A stretch of 31,198 bases of DNA from Inquilinus sp. (GTDB lineage: Bacteria > Pseudomonadota > Alphaproteobacteria > DSM-16000 > Inquilinaceae), in assembly GCA_013003675.1 (NCBI GenBank), contig JABDIP010000452.1, forward strand, positions 1 to 31,198, read 5' to 3'. This document shows positions 3,407 through 18,044 of this stretch, piece after piece. Numbering within the stretch: position 1 is the first letter of the stretch; every line of letters begins with the position of its first letter. The position numbers and the translations under genes were made by a program. Under the pieces are notes generated by a model that saw only the letters and a program-made list of their open reading frames with translations, was not told where the DNA came from and searched no databases.

Positions 3407-3418
3407 TCTTATATAAGA
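3407..3418. promoter_or_regulatory. Perfect 12-bp palindrome TCTTATATAAGA, candidate operator of the GntR regulator
   Basis: Self-complementary AT-rich element in GC-rich DNA, between the divergent gntR and suyA genes. Confidence 0.6.
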
Positions 3419-5013: not shown

Positions 5014-5042
5014 CTTTGCGCCGGCTTGCCGTCCGCTATACT
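5014..5042 (+). promoter_or_regulatory. Possible internal promoter for the TTT genes (-10 TATACT at 5037-5042)
   Basis: Strong -10 hexamer with a weak upstream CTTTGC, inside the 122-nt gap between suyB and tctC. Confidence 0.3.
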
Positions 5043-5106
5043 CGGTGGCGAAGAAAGAGCCGGGCCCCTGGAGGCCCAGCCTCAATCAAGATCGGGAGGT
5101 ATCGCC

Positions 5107-6063
5107 ATGAGAATTCTTCGGACGCTGTTGACCGCCGTCGCCGCTGTCGCGGTGATCGGAGCCCCCGTCGCCCAGGCCGAGTTTCCGGAAAAACCGATGA
5201 ATTTCATCGTCGCCTTCAACCCGGGCGGCGAGACCGACGTGACGGCGCGGCTGCAGCAACCCTACTACGAGAAAGTTGCCGGCCAGCCGCTGGTGATCCA
5301 GTACAAGCCCGGCGCCGGCGGTGCCCAGGCCTGGGCCGGTCTGAACGAGCTACCGGGCGACGGCTACACGATGGTCGGCACCAATCTGCCGCACATCATC
5401 CTGCAACCGATGGAGAAGGACGTCGGGTACGAGACCGCCGATATCACCAACGTCTACATGTTCCACTACACGCCGGATGCCGTGCTGGTGCCGCAGGACA
5501 GCCCGTTCCAGACACTGGCCGACCTAGTCGCCTACGCGAAGTCGACGCCCGGCGCGGTCACCTTGTCCGGCTCCGGCACCAATACGGCCAACCATCTGGC
5601 GCAGCGGCGGTTCAGCGAGATGGCCGGGATCACCACCACCTATGTGCCGTTCGGCGGCACCGGGCCGTCGGTGACCGCGGTGCTCGGCAACCAGGTGAGT
5701 GGCGCGATGGGCTATTCCACGGTCGGTGTCGCCCAGGAAGGCCAGCTTCGCATGCTGGCGGTCGCCACCGATCAGCGGCTGCCCCGCTTCCCCGACGTGC
5801 CGACCTTCAAGGAATTGGGCTACGACCTTGTTTCGGGCGCCTATCGCGGCATCGCGGTGCCGAAATCGACATCGGAGGAAGTTCGCCACCAGGTCTCCGA
5901 CATCATCGGCCGGATCAATGCCGATCCCGATTTCATCCAACAGATGGAGGATGGCGGCTTCGTCGTGATCGACGTGCCCTATGACGAGGTGCCGGCATTC
6001 ATGGCGGCGAAACAGAGCGAGTATGGCGAACTGGCCGACGCCATGGGCATCCGCAAGCGCTAG
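5107..6063 (+). CDS. tctC: Tripartite tricarboxylate transporter substrate-binding protein (Bug/TctC); probable sulfolactate binding
   Basis: Signal peptide, FNPGGETDVTAR, KPGAGGA and VPFGGTGPSVTAVLG. GGGAGG precedes the ATG at 5107, so this start is preferred over the TTG at 5026. Confidence 0.9.
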   Translation: MRILRTLLTAVAAVAVIGAPVAQAEFPEKPMNFIVAFNPGGETDVTARLQQPYYEKVAGQPLVIQYKPGAGGAQAWAGLNELPGDGYTMVGTNLPHIILQPMEKDVGYETADITNVYMFHYTPDAVLVPQDSPFQTLADLVAYAKSTPGAVTLSGSGTNTANHLAQRRFSEMAGITTTYVPFGGTGPSVTAVLGNQVSGAMGYSTVGVAQEGQLRMLAVATDQRLPRFPDVPTFKELGYDLVSGAYRGIAVPKSTSEEVRHQVSDIIGRINADPDFIQQMEDGGFVVIDVPYDEVPAFMAAKQSEYGELADAMGIRKR

Positions 6064-6099
6064 GCGGCCCTGGCCACCGCCGGCCCGGCCGCAACCGGC

Positions 6100-7602
6100 A
6101 TGCTGGACTTCCTCGCGCAGGCGCTGACGCCGTTCAACCTGACGCTGGCCTTGGTCGGTGTCGTGTTGGGGACGGTGATCGGCGCCCTGCCGGGGTTGTC
6201 GGCGACCATGGCGGTGGCGGTGCTGGTGCCGTTCACCTTCGCGATGGACCCGGCCTCGGGGCTGATCGCGCTCGGCGCCATCTATACCGGCGCCATCTAT
6301 GGCGGCGCCTTCGCCGCCATCCTGGTCAACACGCCGGGGACGCCGTCGGCAATCGCCACAACCTTCGACGGCTATCCGATGGCCCGGCGCGGCGATGGCA
6401 GTTTGGCAGTGACCCTGGCTACCCTGTCCTCGGTCACCGGCGGGCTGGTCGGCGCCGTCTTCCTGTTGCTGCTGGCGCCGCCGCTGGCCAAGGTGGCGCT
6501 GGCCTTCGGGCCGCCGGAGTATTTCTGGCTGGCGGTGTTCGGGCTGACGCTGATCTCCGCCCTGTCCACCGGCAATATGCTGAAGGGGCTGATCGGCGCC
6601 TGTTTCGGCCTGTTGTTGTCGATGGTCGGGGTGGCGGTGGTCGGCGGCGACATCCGCTTCACCCTCGAGAGCCAGACGCTGCTCGGCGGCATCAACGTGA
6701 TCGCGGCGCTGATCGGGCTCTATTGCATCCCGGTGCTGATCGATCTGGTCGCCACTCCCGATCCGCATCTGAAGGTCGCCGCGGGAGCCGGCGGTTTCCG
6801 CTTGGCCGAGGCGGCGCGGCTGGCGTGGCGCAGCAAGGTGAACCTGCTACGCAGTTCGGTCATTGGCACGCTGGTCGGCATCCTGCCCGGGGCCGGCGGT
6901 TCGATCGCCGCGCTGGTCTCTTATTCCGAGGCGCGGCGTTCGTCAAAGCGGCCGGAGCGGTTCGGCCAGGGCGAGCCGGACGGCATCATGGCCACTGAAA
7001 GCGCCAACAACGCCACGGTCGGCGGCGGCTTCATCCCGACCCTGGTGCTCGGCATCCCCGGCACACCGCCCGACGCGGTGATCCTCGGGGCCTTGCTGGT
7101 GCAGGGTATCCGCACCGGCCCGACCCTGTTCGTGCAACAGGGATCGATCGTCTACACCTTCATCTTCGGGCTGCTGATCGCCACCGTGCTGATGCTGCCG
7201 ACCGGCCTGGTGCTCGGCCGCTACGCCTATCAGTCGATCGTCTCGATCCCCAAGGCGGTGCTGGTGCCGACGGTGGCGTTCATGACCGTCATCGGCTCCT
7301 ACGCCATCCAGAACAGCCCCTCCGACGTGGTCATCATGTGGGCGCTGGGCGTGATGGGCTGGGGGTTGAACCGCTTCGGCTTCTCGCCGTCGCCGATCGT
7401 GCTCGGCCTCATCCTCGGGCAGATCGCCGAGCAGGGGTTCGTGCAGGCTTATCTGATCGGCAACGCGACGGGCAACGTGGCGGGCATGTATTTCGGCCGG
7501 CCGATCAGCCTGGCGATCCTGGCCCTGGCCCTGCTGACGCTGTTCTATCCCTGGCTTTCGGATCGCTGGCGCAGGCGCCGGCGGGGGACTCCGGATGACT
7601 GA
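6100..7602 (+). CDS. tctA: Tripartite tricarboxylate transporter large permease
   Basis: Hydrophobic 500 aa with GALPGLSATM, NTPGTPSAIATTFDGYPM and LGIPGTPPDAVILGAL. Confidence 0.92.
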   Translation: MLDFLAQALTPFNLTLALVGVVLGTVIGALPGLSATMAVAVLVPFTFAMDPASGLIALGAIYTGAIYGGAFAAILVNTPGTPSAIATTFDGYPMARRGDGSLAVTLATLSSVTGGLVGAVFLLLLAPPLAKVALAFGPPEYFWLAVFGLTLISALSTGNMLKGLIGACFGLLLSMVGVAVVGGDIRFTLESQTLLGGINVIAALIGLYCIPVLIDLVATPDPHLKVAAGAGGFRLAEAARLAWRSKVNLLRSSVIGTLVGILPGAGGSIAALVSYSEARRSSKRPERFGQGEPDGIMATESANNATVGGGFIPTLVLGIPGTPPDAVILGALLVQGIRTGPTLFVQQGSIVYTFIFGLLIATVLMLPTGLVLGRYAYQSIVSIPKAVLVPTVAFMTVIGSYAIQNSPSDVVIMWALGVMGWGLNRFGFSPSPIVLGLILGQIAEQGFVQAYLIGNATGNVAGMYFGRPISLAILALALLTLFYPWLSDRWRRRRRGTPDD

Positions 7603-8083
7603 CGGCATCGAGGGCGGCGGCCCGAAATACCGCGACTACCCGTCGATCGGCCTTGCCGTTCTGTTCGCTCTGCTCGGTGTCTGGGTGCTGTTCGAGACAA
7701 CGGCGATGACGGCGTTCGGCTCGATCTTCCCGCGCGCCATCGCGATCGCCATGATCGTCCTGTCGATGGCGCTGGTGGTCCAGCAGCTCCGGCGCCCGAG
7801 GCGGCCGGGCCCGGGCCGGCCGTCGTCAGGGCCTGAGTCGACGCCGCGGCGGGTGGCATTGGCGGCAGTCATGGCGGCCTGGGCATTGTCGATGCCGGTG
7901 GTCGGCTTTTTCGTGACCAGCCTGCTGGCGTTCCTGGTGCTCTTGGCGGTCGCCAATTATGACGGCTGGACGCCGCGCCGTATGCTCCTCTATGGCGCAT
8001 CCGGGGTCGTGGTAGTCGCTGGCTTCTATCTGCTGTTCGTCAAGGCGCTGCTGGTGCCGGTTCCGAGCGGTTGGCTGTTCTGA
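7595..8083 (+). CDS. tctB: Tripartite tricarboxylate transporter small permease
   Basis: 162 aa with about four hydrophobic segments, FPRAI, and C-terminal LLVPVPSG; overlaps the tctA stop. Confidence 0.85.
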   Translation: MTDGIEGGGPKYRDYPSIGLAVLFALLGVWVLFETTAMTAFGSIFPRAIAIAMIVLSMALVVQQLRRPRRPGPGRPSSGPESTPRRVALAAVMAAWALSMPVVGFFVTSLLAFLVLLAVANYDGWTPRRMLLYGASGVVVVAGFYLLFVKALLVPVPSGWLF

Positions 8084-10033: not shown

Positions 10034-10256
10034 CGAACCCTCACAGGCTCCGGCCGCCGGTTCCGCTCGCATTTCACCAAATCTATACACTTCCCGCTGA
10101 CTATAGCGATCAGACACTTATTCGTGTCTTGGTAGTAGTCACCCCTAGCGGACTGACGTTTTCAGACGTTCTGTCGTCAGATTGCCTATTTAAATCGCCC
10201 ATGGACTATGAGGGCGGCGGCGACCCGGCTGGGGCCAAACATAGGGGGAAGATACC

Positions 10257-11195
10257 TTGTTCAAGCAACCGAGATGGACGCGACTGGCGGCGGCCATCCT
10301 GGCCGTCGTGCTTTCTTCCGGTCCTTCGCGAGCCGACGAACCGACCGCCTCTCGCGAGCAGACGCTCGTGGTGGGGCGGGTGTCGCAGGACCCGGTCAAG
10401 ACGTTGCCGCGCCTGCGCGCCATGGCCGCCTATCTGGAAACCCGGCTGGCGAGCGCCGGCATCACCGCCAGCGAGGTCATTGTCGTTCGCAGCAACGCGG
10501 AAATGGTGGAGCTGCTGCGCTCGGGCGCCGTCGACATGGTCTCGGAAACCGCCATGTCGGCCTTTCAGTTCGTCGAGAAGGCGGACGCCGAAATCCTCTT
10601 GCGCGAATGGAAGCGCGGCGTTGCCGAATACGAGTCGATCCTGATCGTTGGGCGGAACAGCGGCATCACCATGATCGAGGAACTGCGCGATCATGTGATC
10701 GCCTTCGAGGACCCTGGCTCGACCAGCGGTTTCCTGATGCCGATGGCGCTTCTCAGCGAAAACGGCATCTGCGCCGTCCAGCTCGCGGCCCCCGGCCAGC
10801 GGCCGCCGGCCGGCTGCGTCGGCTATCTGTTCACGAATGGCGAGATCAACATCGCCGCCTGGGTCGCGCGGGGCATCACCGACGCCGGCGCGCTCAACAA
10901 CCTCGATTGGGCCGATGAGTCGCGGACGCCGCCGGCGTTGCAGGCGGAGCTGGACATCTTCATGGCCAGCCCGCGGATTCCGCGGTCGGTCGTTCTGGTC
11001 CGCGGCAACACGCGCCCGGAACTACGTGCGGCGCTCCGCGATACCCTGATCGGCATGGAAGCTGACGAACTGGCGGTGGAGGTTCTCAAGATCTACTACG
11101 GCGTCAGCCGCTACGATCCGTTCGTTGGCCAGACCGCGCTCGACCTTGCGGCCGTCCAGCGTCACTACGAGGCGGTCCGCGCCCGACTGCAGTAG
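10257..11195 (+). CDS. PhnD/SsuA-like (phosphate/phosphite/phosphonate) periplasmic substrate-binding protein
   Basis: TTG start after GGGGG, Sec-type signal peptide, YESILIV and IAFEDPGSTSGFLMP oxyanion-binding motif. Confidence 0.8.
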   Translation: MFKQPRWTRLAAAILAVVLSSGPSRADEPTASREQTLVVGRVSQDPVKTLPRLRAMAAYLETRLASAGITASEVIVVRSNAEMVELLRSGAVDMVSETAMSAFQFVEKADAEILLREWKRGVAEYESILIVGRNSGITMIEELRDHVIAFEDPGSTSGFLMPMALLSENGICAVQLAAPGQRPPAGCVGYLFTNGEINIAAWVARGITDAGALNNLDWADESRTPPALQAELDIFMASPRIPRSVVLVRGNTRPELRAALRDTLIGMEADELAVEVLKIYYGVSRYDPFVGQTALDLAAVQRHYEAVRARLQ

Positions 11196-13115
11196 ATGCG
11201 CCTGCGCCTTGAAACACGCTACTCGCTGGCGATCCTGGGCCTGATCGGGTTCGTGGTCGCCAGCCTGTCCACCAGTCTCGTGGTGGCGTCGTGGCGGACC
11301 GCCGAGGCGACAAGGACGGCCAGCGTAGCCGCCATGCAAGAGGCGTTGAGCCGGCAGATCGAGGAGAATGCGGTTGCCGAGGCCGAAGTGCTCGCCGCTT
11401 CGCTCGCCGCGCCGGTCTATTTTCTCGATTTCAGCGTAATCGGCGATCTGCTTGGGTCGACCAAGGCGGCGCAACACATCGTTATCGTGAATCTCGAGGA
11501 TACCGCCGGACGCATCATTCACGACGGCTCGCTCACCCTCGAGAATTACGGCCTGACGAGTGGCAACGCGTCGCGCCGGGACCGTGCCCTGGGCGGCGAG
11601 CGGATAACATGGATCGAGGGCGACGTCTTCAATGTCTACATGCCGGTGGCGATCGGCGATGAGCCGATGGCCTTGCTGCATCTCGGTCTTTCGATGGAGC
11701 GGGCGCGGACCGCGGTGGCGTCGCTGGACACCGACATGCGCCGGATCAGCGAATCCGGTACCGCCCGCACCCTGGCCCTGTCGATCCTGCTATCCCTGCT
11801 GCTGGCGGCGCTCGGCGTATTGCTGGCCTTCTTGGTCGCCCGCCGATTGACCAAGCCGATCCTCAAGCTGTCCGAACTGACCCACCGCGTCGGCCAAGGC
11901 GACTATGACGGCGATCTCGACATCGAGCGCGGCGACGAGATCGGCGATCTGGCGCAGTCCTTCAGCCAGATGACCAAGGATCTGAAACGCACGACGGTGT
12001 CGACCGCCTATCTCGACAATATCCTGCGCAGCATGATGGATCCGCTGTTCGTCCTAGGACCGACGGGCGAGATCCGTACCGTCAACCAATCGGCCTGCGA
12101 TCTGCTGAAATGCGCGGAGGCGGATCTGATCGGCCGACCCGTCGACGGCATGATCCAGGTTGACGACCCCGCGGCGTCACCGGGCATGGGCGGCGCGGAA
12201 GGCGAGTTGTTGTGCTGCGACGGCAGCCGTGTCGCGGTACTGGTCTCGCGCTCGGCGATCGAGCTGCCGAACGGGGCCGGCAGCGTCTGCGTCGTGCGCG
12301 ACATCACCGAACGCAAGCGGTCGGAGATCGCCCTGCGCGCCGCCAAGGAAGACGCCGAACTGGCCAGTCGCACCAAGAGCGAGTTCCTGGCCAATATGAG
12401 CCATGAACTGCGGACGCCGCTCAACGCCATCATCGGCTTCTCCGAGACGATGGTGAACGAACTCTTCGGGCCGGTCGGCTCACCGCGCTATGGCGAGTAC
12501 GCCAACGATATCCGGGAGAGCGGACGACATCTCCTCGGCATCATCGGCGAGATCCTCGACATGGCGAAGATCGAGGCCGGCAAGCTCGACCTCGACGACG
12601 GACCGATGGATCTGGGCTCGGTGGTCACTGCGGCGATGCGGCTGGTCCACTCGCGGGCGGAAAGCCCGGACCTGTCGGTAACTGTGGCGGTGGCGGATGA
12701 CGCCGTCCTCTACGGCGACGAGAAGCTGGTCAAGCAGATCATCCTCAATCTCGCCTCGAACGCCTTCAAGTTCACGCCGGCCGGCGGGCTGGTCTCGATC
12801 AAGGTCCGATATCGCGCCGATGACGGCCTGACGCTGGCGGTCCGGGACAATGGCGTCGGGATCGCCCGCGGCGAGATCGCCAAGGCGATGCAGCCTTTCG
12901 GCCAGGTCGACAGCACGTTGTCGCGCGCCCAGGGCGGCACGGGGCTAGGCCTGCCTCTGGTCCGCGCCTTCACCGAGTTGCACGGTGGCAATTTCCGGCT
13001 GCTGAGCGGCTTCGGGCGCGGCACCGTGGCGCTGGTCGATTTCCCCCCGGTACGGACCCGGCGCAGGAACAAGCCGAACAAGCGGCGACCGGCCGACCGC
13101 GCGAGGGCGTCGTAG
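11196..13115 (+). CDS. Membrane sensor histidine kinase (TM-periplasmic-TM-HAMP-PAS-HisKA-HATPase), PleC/DivJ-like H box
   Basis: HAMP (RGDEIGDLAQSFSQM), PAS (YLDNILRSMMDPLFVL...VNQSAC), EFLANMSHELRTPLNAIIGFSE, NLASNAFKFT, DNGVGI and GGTGLGL; no receiver domain. Confidence 0.93.
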   Translation: MRLRLETRYSLAILGLIGFVVASLSTSLVVASWRTAEATRTASVAAMQEALSRQIEENAVAEAEVLAASLAAPVYFLDFSVIGDLLGSTKAAQHIVIVNLEDTAGRIIHDGSLTLENYGLTSGNASRRDRALGGERITWIEGDVFNVYMPVAIGDEPMALLHLGLSMERARTAVASLDTDMRRISESGTARTLALSILLSLLLAALGVLLAFLVARRLTKPILKLSELTHRVGQGDYDGDLDIERGDEIGDLAQSFSQMTKDLKRTTVSTAYLDNILRSMMDPLFVLGPTGEIRTVNQSACDLLKCAEADLIGRPVDGMIQVDDPAASPGMGGAEGELLCCDGSRVAVLVSRSAIELPNGAGSVCVVRDITERKRSEIALRAAKEDAELASRTKSEFLANMSHELRTPLNAIIGFSETMVNELFGPVGSPRYGEYANDIRESGRHLLGIIGEILDMAKIEAGKLDLDDGPMDLGSVVTAAMRLVHSRAESPDLSVTVAVADDAVLYGDEKLVKQIILNLASNAFKFTPAGGLVSIKVRYRADDGLTLAVRDNGVGIARGEIAKAMQPFGQVDSTLSRAQGGTGLGLPLVRAFTELHGGNFRLLSGFGRGTVALVDFPPVRTRRRNKPNKRRPADRARAS

Positions 13116-16775: not shown

Positions 16776-16967
16776 GAGCCAATGCAACAGGCTTACAATC
16801 CTGAACATGCCCAAACAAAGTTAATAAAACCTTACCAGGGCCTGAAGAATCGTCCCGATCTCCAAAAAAACGAAACTGTGTCGGAACCGCCGTCACCCGT
16901 CGGCTTCCCCGCGTCATGGCCATTCGCTACGATCGTCAATAATCCAGGCACAGGGAGACACAAGCCA

Positions 16968-18044
16968 ATGAAACGTCGAAACTTTCTTGCGACTACCGGC
17001 ATCGGCGCGGCAGCGGCGGTCGCCGCCCCGGCGATTGCGCAGGGCCGCACCGAGTGGACGATGGTGACACCGTGGCCGAAAGGCGCCCCGGGTGTCGGCG
17101 TCAACGCCCAGCGCGTCGCCGACCGCATCACCGAGATGAGCGATGGCCGGCTGACCATCAAGCTCTACGCCGGCGGCGAGCTGGTCCCGCCATTCGAGTC
17201 GATGGATGCGGTACAGAGCGGCAATGCCGACATCATGCATGCGACGCCCTATTACTGGGTCGGCAAGACACCCTCCCTCAACTACTTCACGACAGTACCG
17301 TTCGGATTGAACGCGGTGGAACTCGCCGGTTGGCTCTATCATGGCGGTGGACAGGCATTGTGGGACGAGGCCTATGCCGGGTTGGGCGTGAAGGCGTTCT
17401 ATGCCGGTTCCAGCGGCGTCCAGGCGGGGGGCTGGTTCCGCCAGGAAATCAACACGCTCGATGATATCCGGGGCCTGAAGATCCGCATCGCCGGTCTCGG
17501 CGGCGAGGTGTTCCGGCGTCTCGGCGCCGCCGTCGTGCTGTTGCCGCCGGGCGAGATATTCCCGGCCATGCAGGCCGGTACCGTCGACGCGGCGGAATGG
17601 GTGGGGCCATGGAACGACCTCGCCTTCGGCCTTCACCGGGTCGCCAAATACTACTACACGCCGGCTTTCCACGAGCCGGGCCCGGGGCTGGAAGTGGTGG
17701 TCAACAAGGCGAAGTACGAGGTGCTGCCGCCCGACCTGCAGAAGATCGTGCAATACGCCGCGCAATCGGTCGCGGACGAGACGGTGGCGGATTTCCACTA
17801 CCACAACGTCGTCTCGCTGCGGCCGCTGGTCGAGGAGCATGGCGTCCAACTACGCGAGTTCAGCGACGCCATCGTCGCCGAGTTGGGGCGCGTGAGCCTC
17901 GAGGCGCTGGAAGAGATCGGCGCCAGCGACCCGTTCACCGCCCGCGTTCATGCCTCCTACATGGACTTCCTACACCAGGCGGCGCCGTACAGCGCCCGCA
18001 TGGAGCAAACGATGCTGCGCCAACGCGCGGCAGTGTTGGGCTGA
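16968..18044 (+). CDS. dctP: TRAP transporter substrate-binding protein (DctP, TakP-like), Tat signal
   Basis: MKRRNFL...APAIAQ Tat leader, GGELVPPFE, GLKIRIAGLGG and DAAEWVGPWND; AGGGAGA precedes 16968. Confidence 0.9.
   Translation: MKRRNFLATTGIGAAAAVAAPAIAQGRTEWTMVTPWPKGAPGVGVNAQRVADRITEMSDGRLTIKLYAGGELVPPFESMDAVQSGNADIMHATPYYWVGKTPSLNYFTTVPFGLNAVELAGWLYHGGGQALWDEAYAGLGVKAFYAGSSGVQAGGWFRQEINTLDDIRGLKIRIAGLGGEVFRRLGAAVVLLPPGEIFPAMQAGTVDAAEWVGPWNDLAFGLHRVAKYYYTPAFHEPGPGLEVVVNKAKYEVLPPDLQKIVQYAAQSVADETVADFHYHNVVSLRPLVEEHGVQLREFSDAIVAELGRVSLEALEEIGASDPFTARVHASYMDFLHQAAPYSARMEQTMLRQRAAVLG

Follow-up and report, generated by a model that had tools for sequence, protein, structure and literature searches.

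A PhnD-fold binding protein and an abutting histidine kinase of Inquilinus as a probable two-protein receptor of the XAC2383 type

The locus considered here raises the question of what a binding protein from a family of transporter components does when its gene is directly followed by the gene of a sensor histidine kinase. The two genes lie at positions 10257–13115 of the window, i.e., the whole stretch of 31,198 nucleotides that was analysed, and all features described below are on its forward (+) strand. A first-pass annotation of this DNA proposed that the binding protein acts as a receptor rather than a transporter, with sulfite or a sulfonate as one candidate ligand. The first of these proposals gains support from the present analysis and the second loses it. 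The pair very probably forms a bipartite periplasmic receptor, in which the binding protein would serve as the ligand detector of the membrane kinase. Receptors of this design are already known from Xanthomonas and from arsenite sensing, and the pair adds a member to this architecture.

The first gene (10257..11195) encodes a protein of 312 amino acids and begins with a TTG start codon, 5′ of which a Shine-Dalgarno-like stretch, GGGGGAAG, is found. Its TAG stop codon occupies positions 11193–11195 and the ATG of the kinase gene begins at 11196, with 0 nt between them, just as the first-pass annotation had read it. Both genes lie in one frame without being fused, the TAGATG sequence (11193..11198) being a junction of stop and start codon and a putative site of translational coupling. 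On sequence grounds, the abutting of the two genes is not due to chance, because the spacing is 0 nt in four of four same-genus genomes and 5 nt in a second genus, the five other genomes in which the pair is kept. At distant homologous loci the gap to the downstream gene is mostly −4 to +113 nt. The surroundings of the pair also agree with the earlier claim that no ABC permease, ATPase or response regulator is nearby: every large open reading frame of the 31-kb window has a family assignment, and there is no ABC permease, no ABC ATPase and no receiver domain among them. A tblastn search of the same window with a receiver-domain query gave no match even at an E-value of 1.

The product of the first gene is a periplasmic PF12974 (PhnD-fold) binding protein (Pfam Phosphonate-bd, E 1.2e-45), assigned to the XAC2383-type co-sensors by its PDB match. 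Residues 1–26 (10257..10334), as read from the translation, form a signal peptide cleaved after SRA, with the boundary to the mature protein at MFKQPRWTRLAAAILAVVLSSGPSRA/DEP and no lipobox Cys. The best match in the PDB is 5UB3 (E 1.8e-43, residues 36–290), which is XAC2383 (PMC10942540); its crystal construct aligns with the binding protein from residue 36 on. The other matches are AioX (6e-14), PtxB (8e-10) and PhnD (1e-5), so that the E-value of 5UB3 is better by about 30 orders of magnitude, at an identity to XAC2383 of only about one third. The anion-binding loop S155-T156-S157-G158 (10719..10730), recognised by homologue conservation and the alignment with AioX, is intact, as had been claimed before. 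Among 43 homologues, S155, Y125 and P162 never vary, S157 occurs in 40, and R243 and R249 occur in 41 each. S155 and S157 align with Ser161 and Ser163 of AioX, and Y125 with its Tyr131 (PMC5908839). The STSG motif is generic to PF12974 and is no pointer to any ligand.

The alignment with AioX bears on the reading of the pair as an arsenic-oxyanion sensor of the AioX, ArxX or ArrX type. In the AioX-AioS-AioR and ArxXSR/ArrXSR systems the genes are adjacent and co-transcribed, and a PF12974 periplasmic protein signals to an sCache-like kinase instead of serving as a transporter (PMC8050422, PMC5908839). The pair shares with them the fold family and the logic of a binding protein working with such a kinase, for which AioX-AioS is the precedent, and AioX is the second-best group of the PDB matches. 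However, when the alignment is read against the AioX pocket (PMC5908839), only three of its seven residues are kept (Y125, S155 and S157): Tyr88, Cys106, Tyr131, Ser161, Ser163, His192 and Asp210 correspond to N80, T98, Y125, S155, S157, E196 and N214, respectively. The arsenite-specific Cys106 is thus replaced by Thr98, His192 by Glu196 and Asp210 by Asn214. Furthermore, the 31-kb window contains neither an AioR-type regulator nor aio, arx or arr genes. The binding protein belongs to a clade distant from AioX, and the pair differs from the arsenic systems in having no AioX pocket, no Cys, no adjacent regulator and no arsenic-enzyme target operon. It is therefore hardly credible that the pair senses arsenic oxyanions.

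The second gene (11196..13115) encodes a sensor histidine kinase of 639 amino acids, in which TM1, sCache, TM2, HAMP, PAS, HisKA and HATPase_c follow each other. Its N-terminus, MRLRLETRYSLAILGL, fits the conserved M-x-L-R...RY-x-L start common to the partner proteins of such binding proteins. The periplasmic part (residues ~35–185, 11298..11750), assigned with the use of AlphaFold2, Foldseek and phmmer, is a single-Cache/PAS-like domain and the predicted docking site of the binding protein. The AlphaFold2 model of residues 1–270 has a mean pLDDT of 86.5 and contains a single Cache/PAS fold, which in Foldseek resembles the extracellular domain of WalK (4ywz; TM 0.78, rmsd 2.4 Å), as well as CitA and DcuS. 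The Pfam match to sCache_3_2 reaches 26.8 bits, just under the gathering score of 28.4, and the Cache assignment therefore relies on the fold prediction together with the family alignment, which has D102 as an invariant position and Y75, P150 and G159 as nearly invariant ones. On the cytoplasmic side, a HAMP domain (residues 213–264, 11832..11987; Pfam E 8.7e-14) is followed by a PAS domain (residues 273–375, 12012..12320; PAS_4 E 4.4e-6, PAS E 2e-5) and by a kinase core apparently of the DivJ/PleC/PdhS type (12375..13046). The core consists of HisKA (residues 394–462), with the phospho-acceptor His403 at 12402–12404, and HATPase_c (residues 507–617), both matched in Pfam.

The closest known counterpart of this arrangement is XAC2383-XAC2382 of Xanthomonas citri. 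The study of XAC2383 (J Biol Chem 2018, 293:10767; PDB 5UB3–5UB7) reportedly describes this protein as working in the periplasm with XAC2382, a diguanylate cyclase with a Cache domain, and is said to include further homologous pairs, from several phyla, whose cytoplasmic output modules differ. In both systems a secreted PF12974 protein of the same clade is encoded immediately 5′ of a coupled gene for a TM-sCache-TM-HAMP protein, and no transporter is involved. The periplasmic domains of the membrane partners are homologous as well, as judged via the partners of two XAC2383 homologues. One of these, L087, is an XAC2383 orthologue (E 1.2e-107 to 5UB3), the gene of which overlaps an sCache_3_2-HAMP-GGDEF-EAL gene by 4 nt. 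In a phmmer search of the fetched partners with kinase residues 35–185, this XAC2382-like partner was matched at 9e-12, and the partner of the other homologue, L083, at 4e-15. A word-based search with the periplasmic region of the kinase gave only one weak relative, a HAMP-GGDEF-EAL protein (E 9.5e-4). What distinguishes the two systems is the output, PAS-HisKA-HATPase_c here and GGDEF(-EAL) there.

Such exchange of the output module is common within the family. Of 43 homologous loci that were fetched, 39 have a same-strand downstream open reading frame, and the products of these frames have TM helices near residues 8 and 190. When Pfam domains were tallied over 40 proteins, i.e., the 39 downstream neighbours and the present kinase, HAMP was found in 35, HisKA in 26, HATPase_c in 25, Response_reg in 14, Hpt in six, GGDEF, EAL and SpoIIE in four each, and MCPsignal in one. 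The neighbours thus include kinases, hybrid kinases, GGDEF-EAL proteins, SpoIIE proteins and a chemoreceptor (MCP), among which kinase outputs are the commonest. The pairing is conserved and the outputs are interchangeable. Because HisKA occurs in 26 of the 40 proteins, the diguanylate cyclase output is, as far as the domain composition of these loci tells, a feature of the type pair XAC2383-XAC2382 and not of the family.

The same survey informs the choice between a receptor and a transport protein. If the binding protein served an ABC importer encoded elsewhere or unassembled, its adjacency to the kinase would reflect dual use or coincidence. PF12974 and TIGR01098 are indeed families of transporter components, some binding proteins have a part in transport as well as in signalling (PMC8050422), and the genome is a MAG of 90% completeness in 583 contigs, in which a transporter or a regulator could be unassembled. 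Against this, the binding protein scores below the cut-offs of both TIGR01098 (100.1 bits vs 112.05) and the PhnD equivalog TIGR03431 (81.5 bits vs 261.1), and most of the downstream neighbours are HAMP signalling proteins. No transporter family is among the 25 commonest of the 35 Pfam families in the downstream neighbours. With PhnD of the PhnCDE importer the binding protein shares the fold and the D-P-x-S-T-S-G-F-L-x-P anion loop, whereas neither phnC nor phnE lies beside its gene; no PhnE or PhnC is encoded on this contig, and none scores above cut-off in the 90%-complete genome. A role in transport is accordingly very unlikely. The homology to XAC2383-XAC2382, the conserved adjacency to Cache-HAMP proteins and the lack of a genomic PhnC or PhnE above cut-off argue for a receptor partner and not a transporter, in line with the earlier claim.

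For the bipartite receptor we infer the physical interaction, the sign of the regulation and the response regulator, and the course of signalling may be outlined as follows. The two lobes of the secreted PhnD-fold protein would enclose a small anionic ligand, and the protein, in its liganded or unliganded form, would dock on the single-Cache periplasmic domain of the kinase encoded downstream. [quoted passage not shown] The output would then reach a response regulator whose gene lies elsewhere, with a single-domain receiver as the likeliest kind. Such reporting of ligand occupancy to a membrane kinase by a periplasmic binding protein is also the principle of LuxP-LuxQ and TorT-TorS. These systems, however, employ unrelated binding-protein families (Peripla_BP) and hybrid kinases, and the likeness is one of analogy, not homology, at the sensor end.

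The ligand probably resembles phosphate or a phosphonate, as a tetrahedral oxyanion or an ester; we know of no member of the XAC2383-type family, XAC2383 included, with an assigned physiological ligand. The genomic position of the pair has suggested another candidate, namely that the binding protein senses sulfite, sulfolactate or a related sulfonate and that the kinase tunes the adjacent sulfoquinovose/sulfolactate cluster. The pair lies directly 3′ of suyAB-like, 2-hydroxyacid dehydrogenase and sulfolactate-dehydrogenase-like genes. Two same-genus genomes, those in which the locus reaches suyAB, share this gene order, the contigs of the other two breaking before it. The second genus with the pair also encodes a suyB homologue, away from the pair. 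Moreover, with their tetrahedral or pyramidal shape, sulfonate and sulfite belong to the general kind of oxyanion bound by the fold. The synteny of the pair with suy genes is nevertheless limited to one genus and therefore counts as a single evolutionary observation. In the second genus (G014), the pair is located among Fur, AhpC, Rieske and cyclase genes, with suyB on another contig. The co-occurrence of the pair and suyAB, proposed earlier as a check, lends no support either: eight related genomes have suyB without the pair, and at none of the 38 other homologous loci is a suy or Ldh_2 gene among the neighbours. The nearest characterised relative, for its part, was deposited in the PDB as a phosphate-binding protein.

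The DNA between the cluster and the pair points in the same direction. After the Ldh_2 gene, a gap of 223 nt (10034..10256) separates the cluster from the binding-protein gene, and this intergenic region is likely the pair's own promoter region. Judged by eye, it is more AT-rich than the flanking coding DNA, and in a promoter scan it gave no match to the sigma-70 consensus. The sulfo cluster already has its own GntR/UTRA regulator, and a motif search found no counterpart of the GntR operator-like palindrome of the cluster upstream of the pair. In the same-genus genomes the equivalent region is a conserved AT-rich stretch located 3′ of an extra 2-hydroxyacid dehydrogenase gene; when the upstream regions of the orthologues are aligned, the four other members of the genus are alike and the region of this window is not conserved with them. 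Four terminator-like matches were dismissed as not credible, as all of them fall within coding DNA, three in the pair and one in the PEP-carboxylase-like neighbour. With adjacency confined to one genus and no GntR operator-like motif in front of the pair, the sulfite or sulfonate ligand of the first-pass annotation is not upheld and appears unlikely.

The kinase core bears on the output of the proposed receptor. From a PleC/DivJ-like H box, the first-pass annotation derived an output through a single-domain regulator. The core appears DivJ/PleC/PdhS-like, as its best NCBIfam matches are DivJ (225.8 bits) and PdhS (217.6 bits), with a lead of about 25–30 bits over the next families, but these values fall far short of the cut-offs (1000 and 2000 bits). 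Within its own genome, the kinase scores highest against the DivJ model. The single-domain regulator is plausible as the putative recipient, since in the nearest paralogous clade non-hybrid kinases are followed by single-domain receivers. In all six genomes of the orthologous clade, the DNA around the pair lacks a response-regulator gene over a distance of about 7 kb or more. The single-domain regulator beside the paralogue on contig C297 (1931–2293) was considered as the missing partner and is not favoured, as the DHp of that paralogous kinase differs (best matches TorS/BarA). The DHp motif FLANMSHELRTPLNAIIGFSE...FGPVGSPRYGEYANDI of the present kinase recurs in at least seven further kinases encoded by the genome, and not in the kinase on C297.

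Its best NCBIfam matches and a family-like DHp sequence relate the present kinase tentatively to the PdhS kinases, its scores being far below the equivalog cut-offs. To our knowledge, no kinase of the PdhS family has been described with a periplasmic binding-protein/Cache input or a defined small-molecule input of that kind. On contig C387 of the genome, a divK-like gene is located next to pleD (634.7 bits vs a cut-off of 474). For the PdhS kinases, the single-domain regulator DivK and PleD are the predicted targets (PMC7003649). It is conceivable, if rather doubtful, that through the pair a chemical signal from the periplasm feeds into the alphaproteobacterial DivK/PleD network of cell polarity, motility and c-di-GMP. 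In this tentative scheme, a PdhS-type core would be joined to an XAC2383-type binding-protein/Cache sensor, and the level of DivK~P would be set by the occupancy of the binding protein with an anion from outside the cell, perhaps a metabolite that is phosphorylated or sulfonated.

The practical value of the locus is modest, and its meaning lies mainly in annotation and in the knowledge of the receptor family. The probable database label of the first protein, "phosphonate ABC transporter substrate-binding protein", would be corrected to that of a signalling co-receptor. The XAC2383-type receptor family would gain a kinase-output member with a DivJ/PleC-like core. Together with its relatives, the pair presents the sensor cassette of binding protein, Cache and HAMP as a unit that is joined to kinase, hybrid kinase, GGDEF-EAL, PP2C and chemoreceptor outputs across Pseudomonadota.

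The two open reading frames of the pair have a third-position GC of 0.85 alike, compared with an average GC of 0.68 for the window, and look like real genes. The binding protein (10257-11195, + strand, 312 aa) begins with a TTG start, with a purine-rich ribosome site upstream, and carries a classical signal peptide ending in SRA/DEP. As described in the first-pass annotation, its TAG stop (11193-11195) touches the ATG of the histidine kinase at 11196 (11196-13115, + strand), and the STSG motif is intact (nt 10719-10730, residues 155-158). The absence of an ABC permease, ATPase or response regulator nearby was confirmed as well: all large ORFs of the 31-kb window could be assigned to Pfam families, with no ABC permease, ABC ATPase or receiver among them, and a receiver-domain tblastn of the window gave no match even at E 1.

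The binding protein is a member of PF12974 (E 1.2e-45) that scores under the curated TIGR01098 cut-off (100 vs 112 bits) and under the PhnD equivalog cut-off (81.5 vs 261 bits). Its closest solved relative is 5UB3-5UB7 (E 1.8e-43 over residues 36-290, identity about one third). The 5UB3 structure is XAC2383 of Xanthomonas citri (PMC10942540), the subject of a 2018 study that appears as reference 41 in PMC12271599. More distant solved relatives include AioX (6e-14), PtxB (8e-10), ArrX (6e-8) and E. coli PhnD (1e-5). In the 2018 study, the diguanylate cyclase XAC2382 is reportedly inhibited by XAC2383, which binds to its periplasmic Cache domain and has a preference for phosphate-containing anions; homologous pairs whose output modules differ are said to occur in several phyla. 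One of the fetched loci, L087, encodes a Xanthomonadales-type XAC2383 orthologue (E 1.2e-107 to 5UB3), whose gene overlaps by 4 nt with that of an sCache_3_2-HAMP-GGDEF-EAL protein. Residues 35-185 of the kinase match the periplasmic domain of this protein (E 9e-12) and the partner at a further locus, L083 (E 4e-15). Since the kinase domain thus matches the partner of an XAC2383 orthologue, both halves of the pair are homologous to XAC2383-XAC2382. The pair is most likely a bipartite receptor of this already known kind, differing in that its output is a kinase, and it resembles the arsenite-sensing AioX-AioS in its logic.

The kinase is composed of TM1 (about residues 10-32), a periplasmic domain of 150 residues, TM2 (about 190-212), HAMP (213-264), PAS (273-375), HisKA (394-462, with the phospho-acceptor His403) and HATPase_c (507-617). 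The periplasmic domain reaches 26.8 bits against sCache_3_2, slightly short of the gathering score of 28.4. Residues 1-270 were modelled with AlphaFold2 from an alignment of 22 partner N-termini (mean pLDDT 86.5), and the globular part of the model superposes on the extracytoplasmic PAS/single-Cache domains of WalK (4ywz, TM 0.78, rmsd 2.4 A), CitA and DcuS.

The binding protein is uncommon: at E <= 1e-30 it turned up in 8 of 401 genomes sampled from the class and in 24 of 401 sampled from the phylum. Searches of relatives, class and phylum yielded 43 homologues with flanks, and in 39 of these loci a same-strand ORF lies downstream, mostly at -4 to +113 nt and with TM helices around positions 8 and 190 of its product. 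Among these 39 neighbours and the present kinase (40 proteins), Pfam assigned HAMP to 35, HisKA to 26, HATPase_c to 25, Response_reg to 14, Hpt to 6, GGDEF, EAL and SpoIIE to 4 each and MCPsignal to 1; none of the 25 commonest of the 35 families is a transporter family. The alignment of the partner N-termini extends from the start codon up to and including HAMP; an Asp (D102 in the present kinase) is invariant, and Y75, P150 and G159 are nearly so. It follows from the tallies and the alignment that the sensor cassette of binding protein, Cache and HAMP is conserved, while the output is interchangeable. PhnE and PhnC were found above cut-off neither in the own genome (a 90%-complete MAG in 583 contigs) nor on the contig of the pair, and homologous loci are not usually accompanied by phnCE permeases, in agreement with the earlier proposal of a receptor rather than a transporter. 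At one locus (L072:3653-6238, genome G190), the gene downstream of a homologue with 40% identity encodes an IS1595-family transposase in place of the Cache partner, whose gene may have been displaced or destroyed.

Within the binding protein, D93, Y125, L143, S155 and P162 are invariant across the 43 homologues, S157 is kept in 40, and R243 and R249 in 41 each. The published AioX pocket consists of Tyr88, Cys106, Tyr131, Ser161, Ser163, His192 and Asp210 (PMC5908839); in the HMMER alignment these correspond to N80, T98, Y125, S155, S157, E196 and N214, respectively. The generic anion cradle (Tyr and the S-x-S loop) is therefore common to both proteins, whereas neither the Cys specific to arsenite nor the other discriminating positions are conserved, so that STSG points to an oxyanion-type ligand and nothing more specific. 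By analogy with XAC2383, the best guess would be a phosph(on)ate-like anion.

Sulfonate or sulfite had also been raised as the ligand, from the adjacent suy cluster. This reading draws on local synteny, its sole support: the pair comes after a cluster of suyAB-like, TctCAB, 2-hydroxyacid dehydrogenase and sulfolactate-dehydrogenase-like genes. Two of the four same-genus genomes (G001, G004) share the order suyAB ... Ldh_2, extra dehydrogenase, binding protein, kinase and a convergent PEP-carboxylase-like gene; the contigs of G002 and G003 end short of suyAB, with an unchanged gene order between the extra dehydrogenase and the PEP-carboxylase-like gene. However, the synteny represents one lineage, and what was seen outside it speaks against the idea. 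Only one other genus has an orthologous pair (G014); there, Rieske, Fur, AhpC, adenylate cyclase and molybdopterin oxidoreductase genes surround it, and suyB is located on a different contig. Moreover, eight related genomes have suyB (E <= 1e-184) without the pair, and none of the 38 other homologous loci has suy or Ldh_2 neighbours. The sulfo cluster has a GntR/UTRA regulator of its own, and the 223 nt separating it from the pair lack the GntR operator-like palindrome seen at 3407 and 2612. A sulfonate or sulfite ligand is thus unlikely, and the proposed check for co-occurrence with suyAB across genomes gave it no support.

TctCAB genes between suyB and the 2-hydroxyacid dehydrogenase (5026-8083) are present in the window only, as compared with L032 and L033; same-genus genomes lack them at that site and have instead, between Ldh_2 and the binding-protein gene, an additional paralogue of the 2-hydroxyacid dehydrogenase. 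The suyB homologue of G003 (C15:32018-33185) looks as though it were frameshifted, matching in two segments that overlap (residues 1-201 and 194-389). At 16782-18044, a gene for a DctP-family (TRAP) binding protein has no adjoining DctQ/DctM membrane genes; a DOPA-dioxygenase-family gene comes next, in an arrangement kept across the genus. The pair itself (10257-13115) diverges much faster than its neighbours: identity to the loci of the four other genus members (L032-L035) is 54-59% for the binding protein and about 50% for the kinase (periplasmic domain 39-41%, DHp 71-76%), against 70-89% for most flanking genes. Over the orthologues, identity remains at 71-76% in the DHp region but is just 32-41% in the periplasmic domain. 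In those four genus members (L032, at 10060-10301, L033, L034 and L035), the binding-protein gene is preceded by some 150 nt of well-conserved AT-rich sequence, reading CATAAGTTTACCGAAT ... TATACCTAAAGTAGAA ... GTAAGACTCTAT, that is not recognisable upstream of that gene in the window.

The own genome also encodes a paralogous system, split over C108:2351-3953 and C297:3-2296, which comprises a PF12974 binding protein, a Cache-HAMP-PAS kinase (624 aa in a 643-codon open frame, interrupted by the contig break) and an overlapping single-domain receiver of 121 aa. This set of three genes recurs in same-genus genomes and at three more distant loci. This receiver is not an obvious partner for the pair's kinase, because the paralogous kinase has a different DHp type, best matching TorS and BarA. 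Contig C108 carries a second binding-protein paralogue (46-1161); the ORF between it and the first corresponds to GNAT acetyltransferases in G001 and G004.

Across all six orthologous-clade genomes, the surroundings of the pair are free of receivers out to about 7 kb or more, and the earlier proposal that output would run through a single-domain regulator encoded elsewhere is reasonable as a hypothesis. The best NCBIfam matches of the kinase core, DivJ (225.8 bits) and PdhS (217.6 bits), lead PnpS, WalK, BarA and TorS by about 25-30 bits, and all of these scores are far below cut-off; the kinase is the highest scorer for the DivJ model in its genome. Its DHp sequence FLANMSHELRTPLNAIIGFSE...FGPVGSPRYGEYANDI...HLL is kept in the orthologues and common to at least seven other own-genome kinases. 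At least eight kinases of the 3.6-Mb MAG carry the DivJ/PleC-type sequence FLANMSHELRTPLNAI.GF.E...G..G...Y..Y..DI (contigs C559, C430, C212, C38, C373, C449 and C280), a seemingly large PdhS-like complement given the size of the genome. The predicted targets of PdhS-family kinases are DivK and PleD (PMC7003649), and in the own genome a bona fide pleD (634.7 bits vs a cut-off of 474) follows a divK-like gene. The pair might couple a chemical signal from outside the cell to the DivK/PleD network, although this is considered unlikely.
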